Below, piece by piece: positions 3,364 to 64,000 of a stretch of 64,000 nucleotides of DNA. Numbering within the stretch: position 1 is the first letter of the stretch; every line of letters starts with the position of its first letter. The position numbers and the translations under genes were made by a program. The notes below the pieces were generated by a model. That model was not told where the DNA came from and did not search any database. It saw nothing but the letters and a program-made list of their open reading frames with translations. Origin of the DNA: Patescibacteria group bacterium (lineage in GTDB: Bacteria > Patescibacteriota > Patescibacteriia > UBA10025 > JAHIVO01); assembly GCA_041650915.1 (NCBI GenBank), contig JBAZKE010000001.1:119770-183769 (forward strand), in the 5' to 3' direction.

Positions 3364-3620
3364 TGAGAAACCGAAACAACAATATGAGATCGAATGCCCA
3401 AAAGGCCGGCATGCTGCGCCAGAAAGAGTGCCACTTCTGCACGAACGGCATGACTGAGATTGACTATAAGGACGCCAAAATGCTCCAGCGTTTCACGTCA
3501 TCATACGCGAAGATACTGCCGCGCAAGAAGACCGGGGTTTGTGCAAAGCACCAGCGGAAGCTCGCCCATGCGATCAAGCGTGCCCGTGTCATGGCAATCA
3601 TCCCATTCACGACACGGTAG
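3363..3620 (+). CDS. rpsR: 30S ribosomal protein S18
   Basis: KECHFCTNGMTEIDYKD...ILPRKKTGVCAKHQRKLAHAIKRAR matches S18; TAATG overlap with ssb stop. Confidence 0.9.
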   Translation: MRNRNNNMRSNAQKAGMLRQKECHFCTNGMTEIDYKDAKMLQRFTSSYAKILPRKKTGVCAKHQRKLAHAIKRARVMAIIPFTTR

Positions 3621-4264: not shown

Positions 4265-5416
4265 TTACTGTTCGACCCACTGCCTGATTTGGTCCGGAGG
4301 CTGCTTCAGTATCTGAGCCGCAAATTCGGGCGGGACGGGGTTAATGCTCGTCTGAATGAACTCCTCAATTTCAGACGGGAGCTCCGGGAATTGCGGCACG
4401 ATCGTGATCGAGTAGTGGTACATTGATTCGATCATTGATCGTGAGAGCGGTTGGCTCAGGAACCCTGCATCGAGCGTGAAGCGCTCCGGTCCATTCCTGA
4501 GGATGAGGTAATACGGGAATCGGTCACCCAGCAGCGCCCCGAGTTTTGCGACAGAGTCCTGGATGAGCGCCCCGAGCTCCCCGAAGAGTTCAGGAGGAGT
4601 TGCCTCATACTGCGAGTAGTGATCGAGCGGTGTAATGCAGATCGTGAACGGTGACTGGCTCGCGTACGGTACCAACGCGAGAAAATGTTCGGTAGAGCCA
4701 ACGGTGAGCGTTCCTTCCCGTTCAATCCGGATGATATCGCATACCGGACAGCGTTCGTGCTGCATGTAGAAGCGGTAGAGCTGGGGCATTTCGAGCCGCA
4801 GCGCGATCGAGACGTGCGATACGCCTACAATCTGTACGTGCGTGTGGCTCAAGCCGCGCTCACTGACGACACTGTTTCCTCCGATTCCAATGATGAGTTC
4901 GGGGAGCATTATGATGTCGCTCTGATCGTGAATGTGCTTGAGCGAGAGAATCCGTTCTCTGCAGATTCTGAGCGCTGCGGCAAATACTGCGGGAGGAATT
5001 TCGGGCAGCGTGCTCCCGTGATCGGGAAACAGCACGCGTTCGCGCACGCCGAATGGGCTTTTGATGTTGTAGAGCCCCCGGACCCCTTCCCTGATGAGAG
5101 TTTGCGTGACGAGGAAGCTGAGGCCTCGCAATGTGGTAACCCGTATGCCGTCGCGATTCATGATGTCGGGATTGACCGCACCGCAATTCGGAATGCAGAA
5201 GTTGCACCATTCCTCCGGCGGCTGGTGTACCGAAATGCCACCGTGGTTTGCACGGAAAGCAAGGGCGAAGGTACGTACCTTTTCGAGCTGTTCTCCGGCA
5301 TCAGCGCCATCCGGTGGACGTATTGCTGTCCACGTGCCATTGAGCAGGCTCTGCCGCATATGAGATCCATGCAGGCCAACGGCACCGACCGTTGCTGCGA
5401 TATGCGAAGGGCACAT
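4265..5416 (-). CDS. GalT/HIT-family nucleotidyltransferase (galactose-1-phosphate uridylyltransferase-like)
   Basis: Zn-site-like CNFCIPNCG and active-site-like HTHVQIVG (HxHxQ) in first half, second CPVC in second half; two-HIT-half architecture. Confidence 0.5.
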   Translation of the reverse strand: MCPSHIAATVGAVGLHGSHMRQSLLNGTWTAIRPPDGADAGEQLEKVRTFALAFRANHGGISVHQPPEEWCNFCIPNCGAVNPDIMNRDGIRVTTLRGLSFLVTQTLIREGVRGLYNIKSPFGVRERVLFPDHGSTLPEIPPAVFAAALRICRERILSLKHIHDQSDIIMLPELIIGIGGNSVVSERGLSHTHVQIVGVSHVSIALRLEMPQLYRFYMQHERCPVCDIIRIEREGTLTVGSTEHFLALVPYASQSPFTICITPLDHYSQYEATPPELFGELGALIQDSVAKLGALLGDRFPYYLILRNGPERFTLDAGFLSQPLSRSMIESMYHYSITIVPQFPELPSEIEEFIQTSINPVPPEFAAQILKQPPDQIRQWVEQ

Positions 5417-5519: not shown

Positions 5520-6653
5520 CTATGCTAAACCAACTTTTTTCTTTATCTGTACCATATTCGCCTGCGCCCGCCTCCTTGCCTTCCTGCTGCCGGCCCTGAG
5601 GATTGATTCGATGCTCTTCGGATTCTTGACGAGTTCAGCGCGTTTTTTCCTGAATTCGACGAATTCAGGAAAGTGGGCAATCTGGTCGGCGAGCAGCTTC
5701 TTGTACACGGAAAACTGGATTGACCCGCCGGTGAGGTCTTTGATGAACCGCCTGCGGTCTACCTTGCTGCCGAAGATGTATAGCAACATGTAGAAATTGA
5801 ACAGAGCCATGAACGTGGCGTACTGCTTGCGGCCGAGCCGTTTTTGAATTGTTGAGAGATCCGCCTCCGAGTGAATTTCCCGGTCCGGCGGGTATTTCTT
5901 TGTGATGTCTTTGAATTCGTCCTTGATTTCTTGGGTATTTTTAAGCAGCGCGCGGATGACGGCATGCTCGCTGCCGGTTGCCGTGGGCATCGCCTTCACC
6001 TTTTTTTCAATGATGTCAGGAGTATCAGCGAGTGCAATATACGACCGGGGGCCGAGGCTCTTCGACATTTTCTTGGTCGGGTCAATGAGGCTCATGATTT
6101 TCGGCGTCGGGGTAACCTTTTCTTTTGGTTCTATGAGCACGTTGCCGTACCTCGCGTTGAAGCTCCGTGCAATTTCACGGGTGAGCTCGAGGTGCGGGAG
6201 CTGGTCGAGGCCCACCGGGACCGTATCCGCTTTATAGATGAGAATATCGGCTGCCATAAGAACGGGATACTCGAGCAATCCGACATTGAGGTTGTGTTTG
6301 AACTGGGCAGCCTTGTCCTTGTACGTCGGGACGCGCTCAAGCCACGCGAGCGGAGTCGTACAGTTGAGAATCCACGCAAGGTCGGTGTGCTCAGGCACAA
6401 GCGACTGGAGCATGATCGTGCTCCGCTTCGGATCGAGCCCGGACGCGAGGAAGTCAACGGCCGTATCGAAGACGCGCTGTTCGAGGTCTTTCGGATCCGG
6501 TCCTTCGGTCAGCGCGTGGTAGTCGACGATGGAAAAGATGCAGGCGTGATTCGTGCTCTTCTGGAGCTTGAGCCACATCTGCATCGCCCCGAAATAGTTG
6601 CCTACATGGAGCTGTCCCGAGGGTTGTATGCCTGAGAAAACGATGTGCTTCAT
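5520..6653 (-). CDS. trpS: Tryptophanyl-tRNA synthetase with C-terminal extension
   Basis: SGIQPSGQLHVGNY (HIGH-type motif of TrpRS) and KMSKSLG; start taken at MKHIVFSG. Confidence 0.88.
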   Translation of the reverse strand: MKHIVFSGIQPSGQLHVGNYFGAMQMWLKLQKSTNHACIFSIVDYHALTEGPDPKDLEQRVFDTAVDFLASGLDPKRSTIMLQSLVPEHTDLAWILNCTTPLAWLERVPTYKDKAAQFKHNLNVGLLEYPVLMAADILIYKADTVPVGLDQLPHLELTREIARSFNARYGNVLIEPKEKVTPTPKIMSLIDPTKKMSKSLGPRSYIALADTPDIIEKKVKAMPTATGSEHAVIRALLKNTQEIKDEFKDITKKYPPDREIHSEADLSTIQKRLGRKQYATFMALFNFYMLLYIFGSKVDRRRFIKDLTGGSIQFSVYKKLLADQIAHFPEFVEFRKKRAELVKNPKSIESILRAGSRKARRRAQANMVQIKKKVGLA

Positions 6654-17448: not shown

Positions 17449-18375
17449 ATGGATCCACTGGAAAAAGCAATCATCGCGACGCTCAGCTATTTTGACGTGT
17501 TTGACTACCCGTTGACTGCCGTCGAGATTTGGAAGTGGCTGTACGTCAGCAGCGCGGATGGCGTGCCGGTACAGGCTGCTGTCGGTGACGTAGTCGGAGC
17601 GCTCGAGGAGCGTGAAAAAATCCGCCAGCGTGTTGATTTCAAGGATGGTTTCTACTTTCTGAAGGGGAGGGGGGAAACGGTGGAGAAGAGAATGGACCGC
17701 TACCGGCTCGCCGAGCGGAAGTTTCACCGGGCGCTGCGGGTGGTCTCCTTGCTGCGGCGGATGCCGTTCGTGAAGATGATCGGCATCTGCAATACGCTTG
17801 CGTACAGCAACAGCAGGCGGGAGGGGGACATCGATCTCCTCATCGTGACAAAACGGCGGCGGGTATGGCAGGTGCGTTTTTGGGTTACGGGTTTTCTAAA
17901 GCTCTCCAATATGCGGCCGCGCCCCGGCAGGACCGAGGATACCATTTGCCCGTCCTTCTTTGTCGATGAAGATCACCTCGACCTCAGCGGGCTCGCTCTC
18001 GAGAATGACATCTATCTTCCGTACTGGGTTTCGCAGGTCGTGCCGGTGTACGATGAGGGCATCTACCGTACCTTCATTGCGTCGAATGCATGGATTCACC
18101 GGGCTATTCCGAACGTGCTTCCATACGTTCCAACAGCACGGCGTCGGCGGAAGCGCGTGAAGCTCTGGAAGTATTTTATTTCGGCTGCCTGTGCCCCCCT
18201 GCCTGAGCAGCTCTTCAAGCGGTACCAGCTGCGCGTGATGCCGAAACGCCTCCGGGAGCTCGCGAACAGGGACAGCAGGGTTGTGGTGCAGGATTACATG
18301 CTTAAGTTCCACGATAATGACAGGCGCGCGTATTTCTACGATCAGTGGAAACAGCGCCTCGCACGGTCCGTATGA
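17449..18375 (+). CDS. Hypothetical protein with putative minimal nucleotidyltransferase-like motif
   Basis: GICNTLAYSNSRREGDIDLLIV resembles Pol-beta-superfamily GS...DxD motif; 4-nt ATGA overlap with downstream membrane protein gene. Confidence 0.45.
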   Translation: MDPLEKAIIATLSYFDVFDYPLTAVEIWKWLYVSSADGVPVQAAVGDVVGALEEREKIRQRVDFKDGFYFLKGRGETVEKRMDRYRLAERKFHRALRVVSLLRRMPFVKMIGICNTLAYSNSRREGDIDLLIVTKRRRVWQVRFWVTGFLKLSNMRPRPGRTEDTICPSFFVDEDHLDLSGLALENDIYLPYWVSQVVPVYDEGIYRTFIASNAWIHRAIPNVLPYVPTARRRRKRVKLWKYFISAACAPLPEQLFKRYQLRVMPKRLRELANRDSRVVVQDYMLKFHDNDRRAYFYDQWKQRLARSV

Positions 18376-56164: not shown

Positions 56165-57088
56165 ATGCCAATTAAGTTTAACAAAATTTACAACCTCAGG
56201 TGGGTCCACATTACCGATATCACTGACGAAGATATCGAGTACCTTGAGGAGAATTTCAAATTTCACCCCCTCGATATCAAGGACTGCCGGGAAGGAGTGC
56301 AGCGGCCAAAGCTCGACATCTATTCCGGGTATCTGTTTATGATTTACCATTTTCCGATCTATGATGAGCGGACGCGCCGCGTGCACGTTTCATCGCTGAA
56401 TGTTTTCCTCGGCATAGACTACCTTATCACGCTCACGACCGAGCCGGATAAATCGCTCAATGACTATTTCGCGCGCATGCAGAAGAAGGTGAAGCGCGGT
56501 TTCAAATTTGATGAGCTAAAAAATAATCCCGCATACCTCCTCTATAAGATTATCGACATGCGCTACCGCCAGAGCTTTTCGGTCATTAACGTTGTTGCCG
56601 AGCAGCTGTCTGTGGTCGAGGAGGAAGTGTACTCGAGCAGGAATAAAGCCGCCACGACGAATCTCGCGATCATCAGGAGGAATATCCTCAATCTCCGCCG
56701 GTTGCTCGAACCGCAGATTAAAATGATTGACCGCCTCGTCCATCTTAAAGGGCAGCTGATCCCCGACAGGCTCTCTGTGTACTATGATGATGTGCATGAC
56801 TACATCGAGAATACCTGGGCAGCGTTCGAAGGCTACCGCGATACGGTCGATGGCTTGTACTCGACGAACGAGTCGATGATCAACCAGAAGACGAACGAGG
56901 TCATCAAGACACTGACGCTCATTTCAGTTGCACTGCTGCCGATGACGCTCGTTGCGAGCATCTACGGCATGAACGTCGAGGGGCTTCCGTTCGCAGACCA
57001 TCCGATCGGTCTCTGGGTAGTCTTCGTGCTCATGGGTTGTATCGTACTCACGAGCATTTATTTTGCCCGTCGGAATAACATGATTTAA
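56165..57088 (+). CDS. corA: CorA-family Mg2+/Co2+ transporter
   Basis: YGMNVEG (GMN motif) before two C-terminal TM helices; CorA cytoplasmic domain. Confidence 0.85.
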   Translation: MPIKFNKIYNLRWVHITDITDEDIEYLEENFKFHPLDIKDCREGVQRPKLDIYSGYLFMIYHFPIYDERTRRVHVSSLNVFLGIDYLITLTTEPDKSLNDYFARMQKKVKRGFKFDELKNNPAYLLYKIIDMRYRQSFSVINVVAEQLSVVEEEVYSSRNKAATTNLAIIRRNILNLRRLLEPQIKMIDRLVHLKGQLIPDRLSVYYDDVHDYIENTWAAFEGYRDTVDGLYSTNESMINQKTNEVIKTLTLISVALLPMTLVASIYGMNVEGLPFADHPIGLWVVFVLMGCIVLTSIYFARRNNMI

Positions 57089-57110
57089 TACATAAGACAG
57101 GCTGGCGGCT

Positions 57111-58640
57111 ATGCCATTTTTTTTACGCGCACGCAAGCTCGACTTCGCATCCGGCGGACAGCCGTGGGTTGTCGTGCTTCAGCAGGAAGAGGCGAAGACC
57201 TTCGGAATTGTCATGGGTGACCTCATTGAGATCCGCTGGAAACACAACCGTGCAACGGCGGTTGCGTACTACACCCGCAGCAAGGTTCAGAAGGGCGAGA
57301 TCGGTTTTTTTCGGGAAATTTGGAAGTACCGTTCAGTCAAGCTCAACGAACCCGTTTCGTTGCGTGTTTTGTCGCGCCCGCACTCTATCGAGGCAATCCG
57401 GAAGAAGCTTTTGGGCGGTGAGCTCTCGTACGATGAGATGCATTCGATCATCGACGATATCGTGCACCACAAGCTTTCAAAAGTAGAGACGACATACTTC
57501 GTCGCGTCGAGCTTCATTAAACCGTTCACCAACGAGGAGCTGTACTACATGACGAAGGCAATGGCTGAGACCGGGGAGGTGCTTAAGCTGCCGTCAAAGA
57601 TTATTGCCGATAAGCACTCAATCGGCGGCGTTGCCGGCAACAGGACAACAATGGTAGTCATCCCGATTGTTGCTTCCTATGGCGTCGTCATACCGAAAAC
57701 TTCGTCGAGGGCCATTACCTCTCCTGCCGGCACGGCTGATACGATGGAGGTACTCGCGCCGGTTTCAATCCCCTTCAATAAGGTGCAGCAGATTATTAAG
57801 AAAATTCAGTGTTGCTTGATATGGGGCGGCAGTTTTCGCCTGGCTCCGGCTGATGACTATATCATTCGCGTACAGCACTCGCTCCGGCTCGAGCCGCTCG
57901 ATAAGATGGTCGTCAGCATCATGGCCAAGAAGGTTGCGATGGGCGTTACCCACCTCGTCGTTGACTTGCCGTACGGTCCGCATGTCAAGGTGACAACAAA
58001 GGAACAGGCAATCGGTGTCAAGAAGGACTTTGAGTACGTAGCAAAGCGTTTTGGGATCAAGATTAATGTCGTACTGACTGAAACGATGGAGCCGGTAGGC
58101 CGTGGCATCGGCCCTGCGCTCGAGGCGCGCGATGTGCTGCGGGTGCTGCAACAGAAGGACTACCGGCCGTCAGATCTGCAGAAGAAAAGCGTCCGATTGG
58201 CCGGTAAACTGCTCGAGCTGACCGGAAAGGCAAAACCAGGCCAGGGTCACATGCTCGCGGCGGAAGCGCTCTCGTCAGGCAAAGCATGGAAGAAAATGCA
58301 GCAAATCATTAAAGAACAGGGAGGAAATCCGAATGTGGATTCAGAAGATGTGACTATGGCAGCATCGCGGTGCCGCCAGCACGCCGCCTTCAGCGGTATC
58401 GTTGTCGATGTTGATGATGAGATGATTGATCAGGTTGCGAGAATCCTCGGCGCCCCGCATGAGAAACTCGCCGGCATCTATATCAATAAGCACCTCGGCC
58501 AGACAGTGCGGAAAGGAGAGCGCCTGTTTACCCTGTATGGCCAGAGCGATGACCGCATCAGCCTGGCGCTCGAGGCGCTCAAGAAACGGAGAATTTTTGA
58601 GATCGAGCGGCATAATATCACTGAGGGAGTAAGCGGTTAA
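57111..58640 (+). CDS. AMP phosphorylase-like (thymidine/pyrimidine-nucleoside phosphorylase family with N-terminal extension)
   Basis: KHSIGGVAGNRTTM and TSSRAITSPAGTADTMEVL glycosyl-transferase family 3 motifs; 509 aa with extra N-terminal ~80-aa domain as in archaeal-type AMP phosphorylase. Confidence 0.75.
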   Translation: MPFFLRARKLDFASGGQPWVVVLQQEEAKTFGIVMGDLIEIRWKHNRATAVAYYTRSKVQKGEIGFFREIWKYRSVKLNEPVSLRVLSRPHSIEAIRKKLLGGELSYDEMHSIIDDIVHHKLSKVETTYFVASSFIKPFTNEELYYMTKAMAETGEVLKLPSKIIADKHSIGGVAGNRTTMVVIPIVASYGVVIPKTSSRAITSPAGTADTMEVLAPVSIPFNKVQQIIKKIQCCLIWGGSFRLAPADDYIIRVQHSLRLEPLDKMVVSIMAKKVAMGVTHLVVDLPYGPHVKVTTKEQAIGVKKDFEYVAKRFGIKINVVLTETMEPVGRGIGPALEARDVLRVLQQKDYRPSDLQKKSVRLAGKLLELTGKAKPGQGHMLAAEALSSGKAWKKMQQIIKEQGGNPNVDSEDVTMAASRCRQHAAFSGIVVDVDDEMIDQVARILGAPHEKLAGIYINKHLGQTVRKGERLFTLYGQSDDRISLALEALKKRRIFEIERHNITEGVSG

Positions 58641-58867
58641 TGTTTTTGAAATGAAAGGTCAGGCAGCGCGCTGCCCTTCAGCGAGCGTATAAAATGGGCA
58701 GGGTGTTTTTTCTTGCCCATCGCTGCACAGGCAGAATCCAGAGTTGAGCGCTTGAGGGGGCATTACGTTTTTTTAACAACGACGCTTAGATCCCATATTC
58801 TCTCAGTTTAATGGATGAACGGATTCGTTCGAGTTGAAAAAACTGCCGGTACGTATAGAATAACAGC

Positions 58868-59248
58868 ATGAAGCTCGAACAGTTTGAACAGTATGTCCGC
58901 GAAGCGATCGCGGAAGTGCCCGTTGCGGTTCGCGGACAAATGAGTAATGTCGCGTTCGTGGTAGAAAATTCGGTTCGCGCAGCCCGGCAAACAGAGCGGC
59001 AAATCAGGTCGCGCGGCTTGCTCCTTGGGCTGTATGAGGGAGTGCCGTTGCCTGGGCGGAGTGCGTACTATTCGGGCGTTCTGCCAGATAAAATTACGCT
59101 TTTCAAGCGCTCGATCGAGCAAATCGCCGGTTCGGATCCGTCTTCGGTCCGGCAGCTTATACGCGAGGTCGTACATCATGAGATCGGACACTACCTCGGG
59201 ATGAATGAGCGGGAGGTGCGTGCGTGGGAGCGAAGGCGGAGGCGGTGA
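58868..59248 (+). CDS. Zincin-like metallopeptidase-family protein (HExxH; DUF1025/Zincin_1-like)
   Basis: VVHHEIGHYLGMNEREV with preceding DP..V pattern. Confidence 0.55.
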   Translation: MKLEQFEQYVREAIAEVPVAVRGQMSNVAFVVENSVRAARQTERQIRSRGLLLGLYEGVPLPGRSAYYSGVLPDKITLFKRSIEQIAGSDPSSVRQLIREVVHHEIGHYLGMNEREVRAWERRRRR

Positions 59249-59313
59249 ATTGACATCATAATGAACAGGGGGTATAATACTTATTGATAATTATTCTCAA
59301 TAAGTTTTTTGCA

Positions 59314-59877
59314 ATGCCCCGGCAGAAGGCCCCAGCGACGAAGAAAAGCGATTGGCGCTTGACCAAACAGCGCCTCGTTATCTTGGATTACGTGCGGCGG
59401 GATCATTCGCACCCTACTGCAGAAGCGATTTTTTCCGGCGTCAAGAAGGTGCTCCCTCGGATCAGCATCGGCACCGTATACCGGAACTTGGGCTTTCTGC
59501 GTGAACACGGCTACCTGAAGGAGTTTGCCATCGATAAGGTTACTCGATTTGAGGGCAGGGTCGACAGTCACGTGCACTTTGTGTGCGAGCAGTGCCATGG
59601 GATTGAAGACCTCCGGGGCAGTACGGATGCCAGGCTCATGCGGGAGATGAAAAAGCTCGCCCGGAGTAACCATTTTATGGTTCGGTCGGAGAACTACGAG
59701 ATTCGGGGCGTGTGCAGAAAGTGCCAGCGTACGCATTCGCCGCAAGAGCTCACCCCCGAACTTTTCTGCATGGCATGCGGCGACCTGCTCGAAGATTTAA
59801 AAAAAGACACGCCTGTATGTAAAGCGTGCAGTTTCAGTGCTAACTGCGATTACTATGCCTCTGCAAAATCGCGATAG
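59314..59877 (+). CDS. Fur-family transcriptional regulator (Fur/Zur/PerR-like) with Cys-rich C-terminal extension
   Basis: LTKQRLVILDYVRRDHSHPTAEAIF...RISIGTVYRNLGFLREHGYL winged helix; HFVCEQCH metal site; extra tail with CRKC, CMAC, CKAC, C. Confidence 0.75.
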   Translation: MPRQKAPATKKSDWRLTKQRLVILDYVRRDHSHPTAEAIFSGVKKVLPRISIGTVYRNLGFLREHGYLKEFAIDKVTRFEGRVDSHVHFVCEQCHGIEDLRGSTDARLMREMKKLARSNHFMVRSENYEIRGVCRKCQRTHSPQELTPELFCMACGDLLEDLKKDTPVCKACSFSANCDYYASAKSR

Positions 59878-59995
59878 GTATTACGGCGACCATACGCAGG
59901 ACTGCCCGGTCTGCGGTGCGATGATGTGCTCGCTCAGCGGCGGCAAGTCGTCGGTATGCGAAAACTGCGGGTATAAGGAGAGCTGCTGCTACTGA
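59855..59995 (+). CDS. Putative Cys-rich micro-protein (46 aa, 7 Cys) in +1 frame overlapping Fur-gene 3' end
   Basis: MPLQNRDRYYGDHTQDCPVCGAMMCSLSGGKSSVCENCGYKESCCY; ends 6 nt before sufC ATG; no SD; could reflect a frameshifted continuation of the Cys-rich Fur tail. Confidence 0.25.
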   Translation: MPLQNRDRYYGDHTQDCPVCGAMMCSLSGGKSSVCENCGYKESCCY

Positions 59996-60001
59996 CGCCG
60001 T

Positions 60002-60748
60002 ATGGAGAACCTTGCCGTTAAAAAGCTCCATGTCGTTGCAGGGGGCAGGAAGATCCTCAAAGGCCTCAGCCTCTCCGTGAAGCCCGGAGAGATCCATGCG
60101 CTTATGGGCCCGAACGGTTCGGGCAAATCAACGCTCGCATCCGCTATTATGGGCCATCCCGGATACCGTGTGACGAACGGATCAATCTGGCTGAAAGGGA
60201 AGCGCATCACGGCGAAAAAACCAGATGAGCGGGCTCGGCTCGGCCTCTTTCTGTCGTTTCAGTATCCCGTTGAAGTGCCCGGCTTGTCGATCGAACATTT
60301 CTTGAGGTCAGCGTACCGTGCGGTCCATCCGGACAGGGCAATGCCGCCTCTCGAATTCAGAAAACACTTTGAACACAAGCTCAAGCTCCTCGGTATTAGG
60401 CGGAAATTAACCGACCGTTCGCTCAACGAGGGATTTTCTGGTGGAGAAAAGAAAAAAATGGAAATACTCCAGCTCGCCGTACTGGAGCCCACCGTCGCGA
60501 TACTCGATGAAACTGATTCGGGGCTCGACATCGATGCACTGCGGGCAGTCACGCAGGGCATCAACAGGGTGATGAATCCGCAGATGAGCATCCTCGTGAT
60601 CACCCACTACTGCCGGATACTGAAGTACCTTAAGCCGGACCACGTGCACGTCGTACGTGACGGCAAGCTCGTGCGGTCAGGTGCCCGCTCGCTTGCAACG
60701 CAGATCGAGAGGCGGGGGTACGATTGGCTTTGGAAGAAGGGCATATGA
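60002..60748 (+). CDS. sufC: Fe-S cluster assembly ATPase SufC
   Basis: Walker A GPNGSGKSTL, ABC signature FSGGEKKK, Walker B/D-loop ILDETDSGLD, H-loop ITHY. Confidence 0.92.
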   Translation: MENLAVKKLHVVAGGRKILKGLSLSVKPGEIHALMGPNGSGKSTLASAIMGHPGYRVTNGSIWLKGKRITAKKPDERARLGLFLSFQYPVEVPGLSIEHFLRSAYRAVHPDRAMPPLEFRKHFEHKLKLLGIRRKLTDRSLNEGFSGGEKKKMEILQLAVLEPTVAILDETDSGLDIDALRAVTQGINRVMNPQMSILVITHYCRILKYLKPDHVHVVRDGKLVRSGARSLATQIERRGYDWLWKKGI

Positions 60749-62145
60749 GGAAAACGCTTCCCAGTATCGGCACTGAAGCGGCGGCCGAGCGGCCCGACGA
60801 GGTCGCGTATTCGTACTCGAGCGGAAAGGGGCTGTCAGAAAAGATCGTCGAAGAGATTTCACACGTTAAATCCGAGCCTGACTGGATGCGCCGCAAACGC
60901 CTGCACGGGTACCGCACCTTCATGAGAAAGCCGATGCAGCGGTGGGGGCCGGATGTATCACCCATTGATTTCGGCGAACTATACTACTACCTCAAGCCAA
61001 CAGAACGCGTCGCAGAGAGTTGGAATGACGTGCCGCCAGCGATAAAGTCAACATACGATCGCCTCGGCATCCCCGCAGCGGAGCGGAAGCATCTCACCGG
61101 AGTAATGGCACAGTATGAGTCAGAGGCGGTATACCATTCCATACAGGAGAAGATGGAAAAAATCGGGGTGATCTTTACCGATATGGATACGGGTCTCAGG
61201 AAACACCCGGAACTCATTGAACGGTACTTCGGTACGGTCGTTCCCGCCGGCGACAATAAATTTTCGGCACTCAATACGGCGGTGTGGTCAGGCGGCAGCC
61301 TCGTGTACATTCCCGAGGGAGTGTCGGTTGATTTTCCGCTGCAGTCCTACTTCAGGATCAATGCAGAACGGGCAGGGCAATTCGAACGCACGCTCATCAT
61401 TGCAGAACCCGGCAGCTTCGTGCACTATATGGAAGGCTGTACGGCTCCCGTGTACTCCTCGGCTTCCCTCCACTCAGCGGTCGTGGAAATCATCGTCAAG
61501 CCCGGTGCGCGCGTCCGGTATACGACCGTGCAGAACTGGTCCCGTAACGTGTATAACCTCGTCACCAAGCGTTCATTCGTGTATGAGGAGGGGACCGTCG
61601 AGTGGGTCGATGGGAACCTCGGCAGCCGGGTGACCATGAAGTACCCGTCCGTCTACCTGCTCGGCAGGAAGGCGCGCGGTGACCTGCTCTCGATCGCGCT
61701 CGCCGGCCGGGGCCAGCACCAGGATGCCGGCGCCAAGGCGATTCACGGCGCCCCCGAAACATCTTCAAATATCATTTCCAAGTCGATTTCAAAGGAGGGG
61801 GGGCGGACATCGTACCGAGGCCTCGTTCGGGTTGCACGGGGGATGGAGGGCGTGCGTTCGAACGTTGTCTGCGATGCGCTTTTGCTCGATGAGCATTCGC
61901 GGTCGGACACGTACCCGAGGATGGAGATACGTGAGCCGCGCTCGCGCATCGGCCATGAAGCGTCCGTCGGCCGCATCGGCGAGGACCAGCTCTTCTACCT
62001 CATGAGCCGCGGGCTTACTGAGGCGCAGGCAATGAGCATGATCGTATCGGGCTTTATTGAGCCGATCGTGAAGGAGCTTCCGCTCGAATACGCAGCGGAG
62101 CTCGACCGCCTCATTGAACTCGAGATGGAAGGATCAGTAGGATAA
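60745..62145 (+). CDS. sufB: Fe-S cluster assembly scaffold SufB
   Basis: SufB/D beta-helix core; ATGA-type overlap with sufC; 466 aa. Confidence 0.9.
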   Translation: MRKTLPSIGTEAAAERPDEVAYSYSSGKGLSEKIVEEISHVKSEPDWMRRKRLHGYRTFMRKPMQRWGPDVSPIDFGELYYYLKPTERVAESWNDVPPAIKSTYDRLGIPAAERKHLTGVMAQYESEAVYHSIQEKMEKIGVIFTDMDTGLRKHPELIERYFGTVVPAGDNKFSALNTAVWSGGSLVYIPEGVSVDFPLQSYFRINAERAGQFERTLIIAEPGSFVHYMEGCTAPVYSSASLHSAVVEIIVKPGARVRYTTVQNWSRNVYNLVTKRSFVYEEGTVEWVDGNLGSRVTMKYPSVYLLGRKARGDLLSIALAGRGQHQDAGAKAIHGAPETSSNIISKSISKEGGRTSYRGLVRVARGMEGVRSNVVCDALLLDEHSRSDTYPRMEIREPRSRIGHEASVGRIGEDQLFYLMSRGLTEAQAMSMIVSGFIEPIVKELPLEYAAELDRLIELEMEGSVG

Positions 62146-62155
62146 GGCGCACATT

Positions 62156-62776
62156 ATGCCACTCGCTCAAATGGATATAAAGGTAAGCGGCTCGGCAGCC
62201 ATTTCCAGACCTACGCGCTGTGTCATCCGGGCAGGCGTGCATGCCACCGTTGATCTGGCGGGTACGCAGACCGCTTTGTTTATCCTGGAGCGGGAGAGCT
62301 TGTTGCAGCTCGTGAATGTGGTACGGAACCACGGCACCATTGAGCAGGTTGTCGGGATTGAACTCTGCGGAACGGGCGCCCGGGCCGAGGTGCTCGCGGG
62401 ATTTCACGGAAAGGGGAGAGCCCGGCACTCGTTTGATATAACCATGCACCATCGGGCGCCAAAAACAAAAGGTGGTATACTGATACATGGGGTATTCGAA
62501 GGGCGGTCGGCGGGAGCGTTCACTGGAATGATTAAGATAGATCCGGGAGCGCAGCAGGCACAGTCGCACTTCACCGACAATGTGCTCCTGCTTGATGGAG
62601 CCACGGCGACATCAGTGCCGAAACTCGAGATTTTAGCTGATGACGTGCGCGCTTCACACGCTTCGACGACGAGCGGAATTGACGAGCGGCAGCTCTTCTA
62701 TCTGATGTCACGGGGAATCGCCGATGCCGAAGCGAGGAGCATGATCGTGGAAAGTTTTTTACATCCGGTCATCTGA
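62156..62776 (+). CDS. sufD: SufD-like protein (short SufBD-domain protein)
   Basis: SufBD C-terminal beta-helix pattern with ...DERQLFYLMSRGI...ARSMIV, paralogous to SufB C-terminus; only 206 aa. Confidence 0.7.
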   Translation: MPLAQMDIKVSGSAAISRPTRCVIRAGVHATVDLAGTQTALFILERESLLQLVNVVRNHGTIEQVVGIELCGTGARAEVLAGFHGKGRARHSFDITMHHRAPKTKGGILIHGVFEGRSAGAFTGMIKIDPGAQQAQSHFTDNVLLLDGATATSVPKLEILADDVRASHASTTSGIDERQLFYLMSRGIADAEARSMIVESFLHPVI

Positions 62777-62789
62777 TAGAGCAGCAACT

Positions 62790-64000
62790 ATGGGCAGAAA
62801 ACTAGGAGAGAAAATCCGCAAGGAGTTCCCGATTTTTCATAACAATCCAGACCTTGTCTTCCTCGATTCCGCAGCTTCGACACAGAAACCTCGGGCAGTC
62901 ATCGATGCAGTGAGCGAATGCTATGATCGTTACTACGCGAATGTGCACCGAGGAATATATTCCCTCTCAGAGCGGTCGTCGGAGGCGTATGAGGCGGTGC
63001 GGGAAAAGGTGCGTTCGTTCATCAACGCAGGTTCCGTCAGGGAAGTCATTTTTACCCGCAATGCGACCGAGAGCATCAACCTCGTCGCGTATTCGTGGGG
63101 CAGGCATACACTTCAGAAGGGGGATGAGATCCTCATAACCATCATGGAGCACCATGCGAATATGGTGCCGTGGCAGGAGCTTGCACGCGAACGTGGCGCT
63201 GTGCTGAAGTACGCGCCGATCACGCCTGAGGGAAGGATTGACCTCAGAGCATTCGCGCGGCTCCTCAGCGAGAAGACGAAGCTCGTGGCATTCACCCACA
63301 TGTCGAACGTGCTCGGCACGATTAATCCGGTCACAGAGATGGTACGCATGATCCGTAAGCATACGGGCGCGGTCATTCTGGTTGACGGGGCGCAGAGCGT
63401 GCCGCATTTTCCGGTTGACGTGCAAGCCCTCGGAGTTGATTTCTACGCATTTTCGTCGCACAAGATGCTCGGCCCATCCGGGGTTGGGGTACTGTTTGGA
63501 AAGCAGGAGCTGCTCGAATCAATGCCGCCTTTCCTGACGGGCGGAGATATGATCTCCCGCGTACGAATCGGGGGCGCGGAGTGGAACGAACTCCCGTGGA
63601 AGTTTGAGGCCGGTACGCCGAGCATCGCCGACGTGATCGGTTTCGGTGCGGCAATCGACTTTCTGCAGTCGATCGGCATGGGAAATGTTTTTCAGCACGA
63701 GCTCGAGCTGACGGCCGAGGCTCTCGATGTGCTTAAAAAGATTGGCGGCATATCAATCGTAGGACCTGGCGAAGCAAAAGAGCGGGGGAGCGCTATAGCC
63801 TTTACCGTCGCGGACGTCCATCCGCACGACCTTGCTTCAATTTTTGATGAGGAGGGCGTTGCGGTGCGGGCAGGAAACCACTGTACGCAGCCGCTCCACG
63901 AGCATATTGGAATACCGGCGACGGCCCGTGCGAGCTTTTACCTCTATAATACGAGTCAAGATATCCATGCACTCGTAGATGCAATTAATAAAGTCAAAAA
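62790..64000 (+). CDS. sufS: Cysteine desulfurase SufS (3' end beyond window)
   Basis: Class V aminotransferase; PLP-Lys motif FSSHKMLGPSGVG; active-site Cys region RAGNHCTQPL; ORF open to window end. Confidence 0.88.
   Translation, partial: MGRKLGEKIRKEFPIFHNNPDLVFLDSAASTQKPRAVIDAVSECYDRYYANVHRGIYSLSERSSEAYEAVREKVRSFINAGSVREVIFTRNATESINLVAYSWGRHTLQKGDEILITIMEHHANMVPWQELARERGAVLKYAPITPEGRIDLRAFARLLSEKTKLVAFTHMSNVLGTINPVTEMVRMIRKHTGAVILVDGAQSVPHFPVDVQALGVDFYAFSSHKMLGPSGVGVLFGKQELLESMPPFLTGGDMISRVRIGGAEWNELPWKFEAGTPSIADVIGFGAAIDFLQSIGMGNVFQHELELTAEALDVLKKIGGISIVGPGEAKERGSAIAFTVADVHPHDLASIFDEEGVAVRAGNHCTQPLHEHIGIPATARASFYLYNTSQDIHALVDAINKVK

Follow-up and report, generated by a model that had tools for sequence, protein, structure and literature searches.

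The stretch of Patescibacteria DNA analysed here (64,000 nucleotides (nt) of contig JBAZKE010000001.1, assembly GCA_041650915.1; hereafter the window) ends in a suf operon for iron-sulphur (Fe-S) cluster assembly whose first gene, fur, encodes a PerR-like Fur-family repressor. All coordinates are positions in the window and refer to the forward strand unless stated. The fur gene extends from the ATG at 59314 to the TAG at 59877 and encodes 187 amino acids (aa). It is overlapped in the +1 frame by a small open reading frame (ORF), the micro-ORF or microprotein gene, which runs from the ATG at 59855 to the TGA at 59995 and encodes a product of 46 aa with seven cysteines (MPLQNRDRYYGDHTQDCPVCGAMMCSLSGGKSSVCENCGYKESCCY). 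The overlap (59855-59877) measures 23 nt, which is seven sense codons plus the stop. The sufC gene (60002-60748), assigned with Pfam and encoding an ABC ATPase of 248 aa, starts with an ATG 6 nt past the microprotein stop and is followed by sufB, a short sufD-like gene and sufS; a promoter and a candidate operator precede fur. An original prediction, made by a model from the letters of the window, had described a +1-frame, cysteine-dense ORF that overlaps the end of fur and stops 6 nt before sufC. This was confirmed, and all of the ORF coordinates that it gave were reproduced.

The regulator and its cysteine-rich tail

The regulator was matched to the Pfam model FUR (PF01475) over residues 12-124 at 77.8 bits against a cut-off of 23.1, and this was its sole Pfam domain. 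The Fur-family label of the original prediction is thereby upheld, with the correction that, by its matches in NCBIfam and the PDB, the protein stands closer to PerR than it does to Fur. The best NCBIfam models were the PerR equivalogs NF047406 (95.5 bits) and NF052545 (82.3 bits), ahead of Fur, Zur and Irr, and the nearest solved relatives were PerR of Bacillus subtilis (2fe3, 95.8 bits), 6dk4 (82.3 bits) and PerR of Streptococcus pyogenes (4i7h, 80.7 bits). The protein is 100% identical to an NCBI entry, 'MAG: transcriptional repressor [Patescibacteria group bacterium]', whose gene lies on a 680-kb contig. In a profile alignment with 2fe3, residues H33, E80, H86, H88 and D99 of the regulator fall at PerR positions 37, 85, 91, 93 and 104, where we take the regulatory-site ligands of B. 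subtilis PerR to be H37, D85, H91, H93 and D104. Cysteines C91, C94, C134 and C137 align with C96/C99 and C136/C139 of PerR, the cysteines of its structural zinc site. The window protein was further aligned with 19 homologues of 180-201 aa (52-78% identity, all from Patescibacteria-type sources). The four cysteines are invariant in these 20 sequences, and 17 of the 20 have an Asp at the position aligned to D104. By sequence comparison, the regulator is a complete Fur-family protein that keeps both canonical metal sites. We use 'PerR' for its nearest relative and not as a subfamily assignment.

Homology to solved structures ends at about residue 141-143, and the remainder of the protein (residues ~143-187, 59743-59874) forms a lineage-specific C-terminal tail of about 45 aa with five cysteines (CMAC, CKAC and C178). 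The original prediction had described a tail of about 50 aa comprising CRKC, CMAC, CKAC and a further Cys. A cysteine-rich tail does exist, but the CRKC pair (C134/C137) aligns with the C136/C139 zinc site of PerR and thus belongs to the canonical zinc site, which leaves a true tail of about 45 aa and five cysteines. The tail motif PELFCxAC-x13-CxxC-x-F-x3-C-x-Y is invariant in all 20 aligned sequences. All 19 homologues carry the tail, each within a single uninterrupted ORF, and they stop 1-10 residues past the invariant C-x-Y, except that two continue in a short stretch lacking Cys. No counterpart of the tail was found in Pfam or the PDB, where it lies past the end of every solved Fur-family structure, and curated families gave sub-threshold matches only (C1_1, and DmmA-like_C with 18.3 bits where the cut-off is 27.4). 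An AlphaFold2 model of the regulator reached a mean predicted local distance difference test score (pLDDT) of 64, and the score falls below 55 in the tail, making this model uninformative. Our best guess is that the tail is most likely a further Cys4(+1) metal-binding ribbon, either structural or serving as a second sensing site. A terminator-like hairpin with a T-run is seen on the minus strand inside the tail coding region (59807-59829) and is probably a chance match to the consensus.

The overlapping microprotein gene

The ATG of the microprotein gene is made from the fur codons Y-Y-A (TAC TAT GCC), in which the Tyr-Tyr pair follows the last tail cysteine. A micro-ORF with its ATG at the same position was found in four distinct genomes, namely the window and the loci L005, L007 and L009 (the metagenome matches L021 and L022 duplicate the contigs L009 and L007 and were not counted separately). 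In L005, L007 and L009 the regulators are 56% identical to that of the window, the micro-ORF again lies between fur and sufC with its stop 10-13 nt before sufC, and the microprotein reads ...CPTCG..MPSLRGSK.SVC.QCGYKESCCY. Twenty-three residues, six cysteines included, are invariant among the four suf-linked copies. In the non-overlapping core of these genes the proportion of non-synonymous differences (pN) is 0.07-0.26 against 0.65-0.91 for synonymous differences (pS), with synonymous sites near saturation. The other two frames of the stretch contain stops, homologues in a database of 5.8 billion sequences were matched at E 1e-10 to 1e-21, and the 46-aa product already stands in NCBI as a hypothetical protein. 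As judged by sequence conservation, the micro-ORF encodes a protein of its own and is maintained by purifying selection. The 'real small protein' that the original prediction had offered as one of two alternatives is thus supported by the conserved ATG in four genomes, the pN/pS values, the stand-alone members of the family and the NCBI annotation. It is hardly credible that the micro-ORF is instead an unexpressed chance ORF or a decaying remnant in the fur-sufC spacer. Such a reading could draw on its absence from the closest relative and most related loci and on its missing Shine-Dalgarno (SD) motif, but it is countered by the strong purifying selection where synonymous sites are near saturation, by the 23 invariant residues across the four copies, by family matches down to E 1e-21, by the stops in the other two frames, and by the fact that genes without an SD motif are the rule in this genome. 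A structured RNA or riboswitch in the fur-sufC spacer was rejected, as no Rfam match was found there at E<=1 and the RNA folding z-score was -0.08 relative to shuffled sequence. A further sequence, P0029, looks like another microprotein linked to fur and suf.

The second alternative of the original prediction was that the regulator's tail is truly longer, either because translation shifts into the +1 frame by programme or because sequencing or assembly introduced an indel near 59850-59880. The product would then have two tandem cysteine modules. Consistent with this, the fur and micro-ORF frames overlap, the tail and the micro-ORF share the pattern CxxCG-x12/13-[VI]CxxC-x-[FY]-x3-C, which a six-frame translation of the window contains only at these two places, and BLASTP aligned the two at E 0.002. 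The homologues speak against it: all 19 end at the same alignment position, none has a second cysteine module fused in frame, and the closest ends in ...AKSR like the window protein. Furthermore, the micro-ORF ATG is conserved at the same position in four genomes, the same peptide family occurs as stand-alone genes of 40-70 aa in other phyla, the micro-ORF core is absent from eight related loci where the end of fur is normal, and reading through the overlap revealed no slippery motif. Comparison of orthologous junctions, which the original prediction had itself named as decisive, therefore refutes the extended tail (19 homologues and 12 related loci). With the 20-sequence alignment and the 12 loci in hand we rule it out, leaving it a very small probability.

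Across the window, an SD-like motif 4-20 nt before the start was found for only six of the 45 ORFs of at least 200 aa. Neither fur, the micro-ORF nor sufC has a well-placed one, the nearest to sufC being an AAGGAG 20 nt upstream. Several starts lie a few bases after a TATAAT-like box (e.g. at 17449, 23185, 26607, 38795 and 44246, and at 6653 on the minus strand). These features suggest that translation in this genome often starts on leaderless transcripts or independently of an SD motif. The absence of an SD motif before sufC, pointed out in the original prediction, is real, yet ordinary here, and with such motifs so rare it was discarded as evidence for translational coupling. The 23-nt overlap followed by a 6-nt gap nevertheless makes coupling by termination and re-initiation plausible, and it is because of this arrangement that ribosomes would probably pass in this way from fur to the microprotein gene and on to sufC.

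The microprotein has a zinc-ribbon architecture (CPxCG ... CxxCG) followed by a C-terminal CC-Y. When 1.84 billion proteins were searched with a three-sequence profile, 193 representative clusters scored at E<=1e-3; almost all are proteins of 40-100 aa with the match at the very C-terminus. A 35-sequence profile detected at least 452 clusters at 90% identity. Named sources of the family are Chloroflexota, candidate division TA06, Ca. Daviesbacteria and the DPANN archaeon Ca. Bilamarchaeum, where members are listed as hypothetical proteins or under automatic zinc-ribbon names of a generic kind. Aligned members give the consensus CPxCG-x2-M-x-A[IL]-x-G[SA][KR]-x-A[IV]C-x-NCG[YF]K[DE]xCC plus 0-2 residues, which we condense to the pattern CPxCG-x14-CxxCG[YF]K[DE]xCC-COOH, defined in this analysis (the CGYKxCC family). 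Across 120 sequences ten columns do not vary, among them six cysteines (C17, C20, C35, C38, C44 and C45); both knuckles, C17-x2-C20-G and C35-x2-C38-G, are thus invariant. The window microprotein, itself one of the 120 sequences of the family profile, has all ten and scores 64.3 bits (E 2.9e-18).

No Pfam or NCBIfam model matched the microprotein above threshold; it reached 17.9 bits with Zn_Ribbon_1 (cut-off 25) and 17.4 bits with RUBY_RBDX, which is below the cut-off of 26.5 and covers only seven residues. The nearest solved sequence was the L37Ae zinc ribbon, a weak match at E 0.002 in which the family consensus reads CPnCGapmgairGskdAiCknCGFK. The AlphaFold2 model (pLDDT 69) has two short strands in the ribbon region (residues 14-16 and 23-25), and a Foldseek comparison of this model with the PDB gave only non-significant generic zinc-ribbon matches, the best at E 2.6. 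In size (40-70 aa) and in its CPxCG ... CxxCG knuckles the microprotein resembles the CPxCG-type small zinc-finger or ribbon microproteins (haloarchaeal Brz, HVO_2753) and ribosomal ribbons (L37Ae, bL32), but its family differs from these in having its own invariant CG[YF]K[DE]xCC signature, usually at the very C-terminus. No solved or studied member of the family was found in the PDB, by Foldseek or in the literature, and no homologue was found in a plasmid collection. The microprotein is thus a predicted C4 zinc ribbon with an invariant C-terminal Cys-Cys and a member of a large uncharacterised family. Our best guess is that it would bind one metal ion, Zn or Fe, through the four ribbon cysteines and that the C-terminal Cys-Cys would be left free for thiol chemistry or a second metal contact.

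Several further observations were made within the family. In P0045 (101 aa, from the representative library) a CPxCG...CGFKDSCCY module is fused behind another double-CxxC zinc-finger region, and a few very long Cys-rich repeat proteins (349-1627 aa) match the microprotein profile, probably through composition. On the Chloroflexota contigs L014-L017 a conserved 112-aa protein without a Pfam match (gene at 5067-5405 in L014) is encoded 42 nt after the microprotein homologue, and the vicinity also holds a PIN/VapB toxin-antitoxin pair and a gene for a DsbH-like thioredoxin protein. The Clostridia contigs L010, L011 and L012 encode tail-less Fur/PerR homologues (27-31% identity) and carry a gene that starts with a rubredoxin-like CPVCGY...CPLC motif, which is directly downstream of the regulator in L010 and L011. 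The family profile matches this motif weakly in the latter two (E 0.04-0.1), and the full product of the gene in L012 resembles a reverse rubrerythrin.

The cysteine spacing shared by the tail and the microprotein raises the question of their kinship. An hhalign comparison of the two modules covered 31 columns at E 0.0025 with a probability of 12%. In a database of 5,101 sequences, a hidden Markov model of the 120-sequence family scored tails at E 0.64 or worse, whereas every true microprotein scored below 2e-5. Homology is accordingly possible but unproven. Were it real, the microprotein might be a free-standing copy of the tail that acts on the regulator, pairing or competing with the tail (for example through a shared inter-chain metal site made with the spare cysteines) and so tuning repression as a feedback element encoded in the operon that it controls. 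The likeness extends beyond the spacing to the flanks (a G after the first CxxC, V or I before the second, an aromatic at +2, Cys at +6 and, within the clade, Tyr at +8), the hhalign match favours it, and the gene is nested in the 3' end of fur and occurs within the clade only beside tail-bearing regulators. On the other hand, the hhalign probability is low, the family profile does not recover the tails, most family members have no tail-bearing Fur nearby, and eight of the 12 tail-bearing loci work without the microprotein. We therefore consider a free tail copy quite unlikely. We would give slightly less again to the converse history, in which the tail is an anciently fused copy of the microprotein gene now found in its 3' end and the free microprotein docks on the tail or competes with it via a shared metal or thiol site.

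Promoter, predicted operator and proposed control of suf

Upstream of fur lies a predicted sigma-70 type promoter on the plus strand, TTGACA-17 nt-TATAAT (59250-59278), which agrees with the consensus at 12 of 12 positions. Upstream of 59314, where the original prediction had proposed to look for a Fur box, lies a 23-bp palindrome, TTATTGATAATTATTCTCAATAA, at 59281-59303. It is an inverted repeat readable on both strands (motif string TTATTRAKAATNATTMTYAATAA) with a Fur-family 7-1-7 core, TGATAAT-T-ATTCTCA, and is the predicted operator. The palindrome begins 3 nt after the -10 box, covers the transcription start deduced from the promoter, and is enclosed by an inverted repeat at 59276-59308. 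No second copy of it was found in the window when up to three mismatches were allowed, and chance alone would produce none. A TTGACA, a -10-like box and the palindrome were present upstream of fur in the same arrangement and at the same spacing in 10 of 10 aligned loci, window included, with the palindrome consensus TTATT[GA]A[GT]AAT-n-ATT[CA]T[TC]AATAA. In 12 of 12 distinct related loci sufC comes directly after fur or has only the micro-ORF between itself and fur. The conservation of a promoter and of a palindrome over the transcription start indicates autorepression, and we infer that fur, the microprotein gene where present, and sufCBDS are autorepressed via the palindrome. That the regulator is dedicated to suf, as first proposed, is supported by this synteny and by the conserved promoter and operator.

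Our best explanation of the whole, to which we assign a probability of roughly 0.75, is that the promoter, the operator, the perR/fur-like repressor gene, an optional microprotein gene and then sufC-sufB-sufD-sufS constitute the regulatory head of a conserved Patescibacteria operon. With metal bound, a dimer of the repressor would occupy the 23-bp palindrome over the transcription start and silence fur, the microprotein gene and the sole Fe-S assembly system that can be seen here. SUF expression would rise once the repressor leaves the DNA, either because the regulatory metal is lost or because peroxide oxidises the protein in a metal-catalysed reaction of the PerR type. The peroxide route draws its support from the Asp that 17 of the 20 aligned sequences have at the position of PerR D104. 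The microprotein would, at best guess, be a dispensable helper induced together with SUF. The derepression logic proposed here is that of PerR control of sufCDSUB in Streptococcus mutans, a precedent for SUF control in which PerR represses the operon and SUF is the sole Fe-S system (PMC11631912).

Several points weigh against this explanation. The microprotein gene, found in four of the 12 distinct suf-linked loci with a tail-bearing regulator, is absent from the other eight (L001-L004, L006, L008, L030 and L031). These include the closest relative, L030, which has a regulator 78% identical to that of the window and the same order of CorA, AMP-phosphorylase-like, Zincin_1, fur and sufC genes. 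Outside the fur-suf clade, no suf or fur genes were found near members of the microprotein family in eight distinct contexts. Because of these absences, a SUF-specific role of the microprotein is weakly supported. The regulator falls below the NCBIfam PerR cut-offs (95.5 against 200 bits for NF047406 and 82.3 against 180 for NF052545), and its residue aligned to PerR D85 is a Glu (E80), which we take to be a trait of Fur proteins. Both AlphaFold2 models are of modest quality. Binding of the repressor to the palindrome, the signal that it senses, metal binding by the tail and the microprotein, and translational coupling are likewise all matters that we infer.

The loci without the microprotein gene also speak to its history. 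L030 matches the window through 59880 and resumes just before the ATG of sufC; the missing stretch of about 116 nt holds the microprotein core (59881-59996; boundaries set by eye and approximate). L030 keeps a micro-ORF remnant of 12 codons, MSLQNHDKYRKL and a stop (~3541-3579), and L006 one of 16 codons, MDRYQKRKSDILKCKY and a stop (~4527-4577). Both remnants still begin at the ATG within the Tyr-Tyr codons of fur. The eight contexts outside the clade revealed no common neighbour of the family either. On the loci compared, the microprotein gene is accessory. We favour an ancestral gene with repeated loss because the ATG is identically placed in two divergent branches.

A different division of labour was also considered, in which the tail binds an Fe-S cluster and reports Fe-S supply in the manner of SufR or IscR (holo-protein represses, apo-protein derepresses) on a Fur scaffold, and the microprotein is a small Fe-S or sulphur carrier that feeds SUF. 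SUF is usually the sole Fe-S system in the Patescibacteria phylum, and feedback through cluster occupancy would be sensible if that holds here. The regulator is in the suf operon at every related locus examined, five invariant cysteines have been added to an otherwise complete Fur protein, and the microprotein has rubredoxin-like knuckles (CPxCG, CxxCG), with weak matches to rubredoxin-like models and, for its profile, to the rubredoxin domains of clostridial rubrerythrins. However, CxxC-x13-CxxC is classic zinc-ribbon spacing, and no similarity to SufR, IscR, SufU, SufE or SufA was detected, the regulator having FUR as its only Pfam match; nor did Pfam or NCBIfam show similarity of the microprotein or the tail to SufA, SufE, SufU or SufT. 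With its canonical regulatory metal site intact, the regulator need not have an extra sensor, and the microprotein is dispensable and its family has no suf link elsewhere. An Fe-S-sensing tail is hence unlikely in our estimation, and we retain the PerR-like repressor as the better account.

The remainder of the operon and its surroundings are as follows. The sufB gene (60745-62145), assigned with Pfam, encodes 466 aa if it starts at the ATG at 60745 or 473 aa if it starts at the TTG at 60724. Whichever codon is used, sufB begins within the end of sufC, and close packing is thus a feature of the entire operon. The short sufD-like gene (62156-62776, Pfam) encodes 206 aa, about half the usual length of SufD, and its product contains only the C-terminal part of the SufBD core, matching the C-terminal two-thirds (profile positions 71-232). 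The sufS gene (62790-64000) encodes a cysteine desulfurase, is open at the window end, and was recognised from the motifs of its translation (HKMLGP..., RAGNHC), without a Pfam scan. Synteny upstream of fur is conserved between the window (56165-59248) and L030 (1-2932). The shared genes encode CorA (307 aa in both; Pfam assignment made in L030), a 509-aa thymidine/AMP-phosphorylase-like protein and, directly before the fur promoter, a 126-aa Zincin_1 metallopeptidase-like protein.

Relation to known systems and significance

PerR, represented by 2fe3, is the closest known counterpart of the regulator. The two share the fold family, with PerR the best-scoring relative in both NCBIfam and the PDB, and the structural Cys4 zinc site and the five-residue regulatory site of one align with those of the other. 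In both systems the operator, too, is an inverted repeat that has a 7-1-7 core and lies over the promoter. Unlike PerR, the window regulator carries a 45-residue Cys5 module that is absent from the Fur-family members with a structure or a curated model, falls far short of the PerR equivalog cut-offs (95.5 bits where 200 are required) and is encoded within the suf operon, as its first gene. The half-site of the operator, TTATT[GA]A[GT]AAT, also differs from the PerR box of B. subtilis, TTATAAT. A second counterpart is Escherichia coli Fur acting on sufABCDSE, likewise a Fur-family repressor with a Fur-box-like palindrome at a suf promoter, though binding at the window operator is predicted. The window core TGATAAT-T-ATTCTCA is one position off the 7-1-7 consensus, which we take to be TGATAAT-n-ATTATCA. 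The Fur protein of E. coli acts globally and is encoded outside the operon, in a cell where SUF backs up ISC under stress; in contrast, the window regulator is encoded in the operon, has an extra tail and has one operator copy in 64 kb. SufR and IscR resemble the window system in their layout as autoregulatory first genes, and the extra cysteines of the regulator could in principle hold a cluster. They belong to a different protein family, and a Pfam scan of the regulator detected FUR only and no SufR- or IscR-type DNA-binding domain.

A literature search found no study of tail-bearing Fur proteins in Patescibacteria, of this microprotein family or of the control of Fe-S assembly in Patescibacteria. 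The finding elaborates the well-known control of suf by Fur and PerR and is not a new principle. Its interest lies in the organisms: Patescibacteria have tiny genomes with few recognisable regulators, and the locus offers a complete, testable regulatory unit, in which a perfect promoter and a conserved operator are joined by a PerR-like repressor that is encoded in the operon and has a five-cysteine tail without precedent. Natural presence and absence of the microprotein gene at the same site (the window compared with L030, and L007 and L009 compared with L006) makes the contribution of the microprotein experimentally tractable. The locus also draws attention to a widespread microprotein family (Chloroflexota, TA06, Patescibacteria and DPANN archaea) with an invariant C-terminal Cys-Cys and no curated model found. 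Should the tail and the microprotein prove to be related modules that act on one another, the suf operon would encode its own microprotein modulator of a PerR-like sensor, and the CGYKxCC family, with its at least 452 clusters, would represent a new class of small thiol or metal switch proteins.

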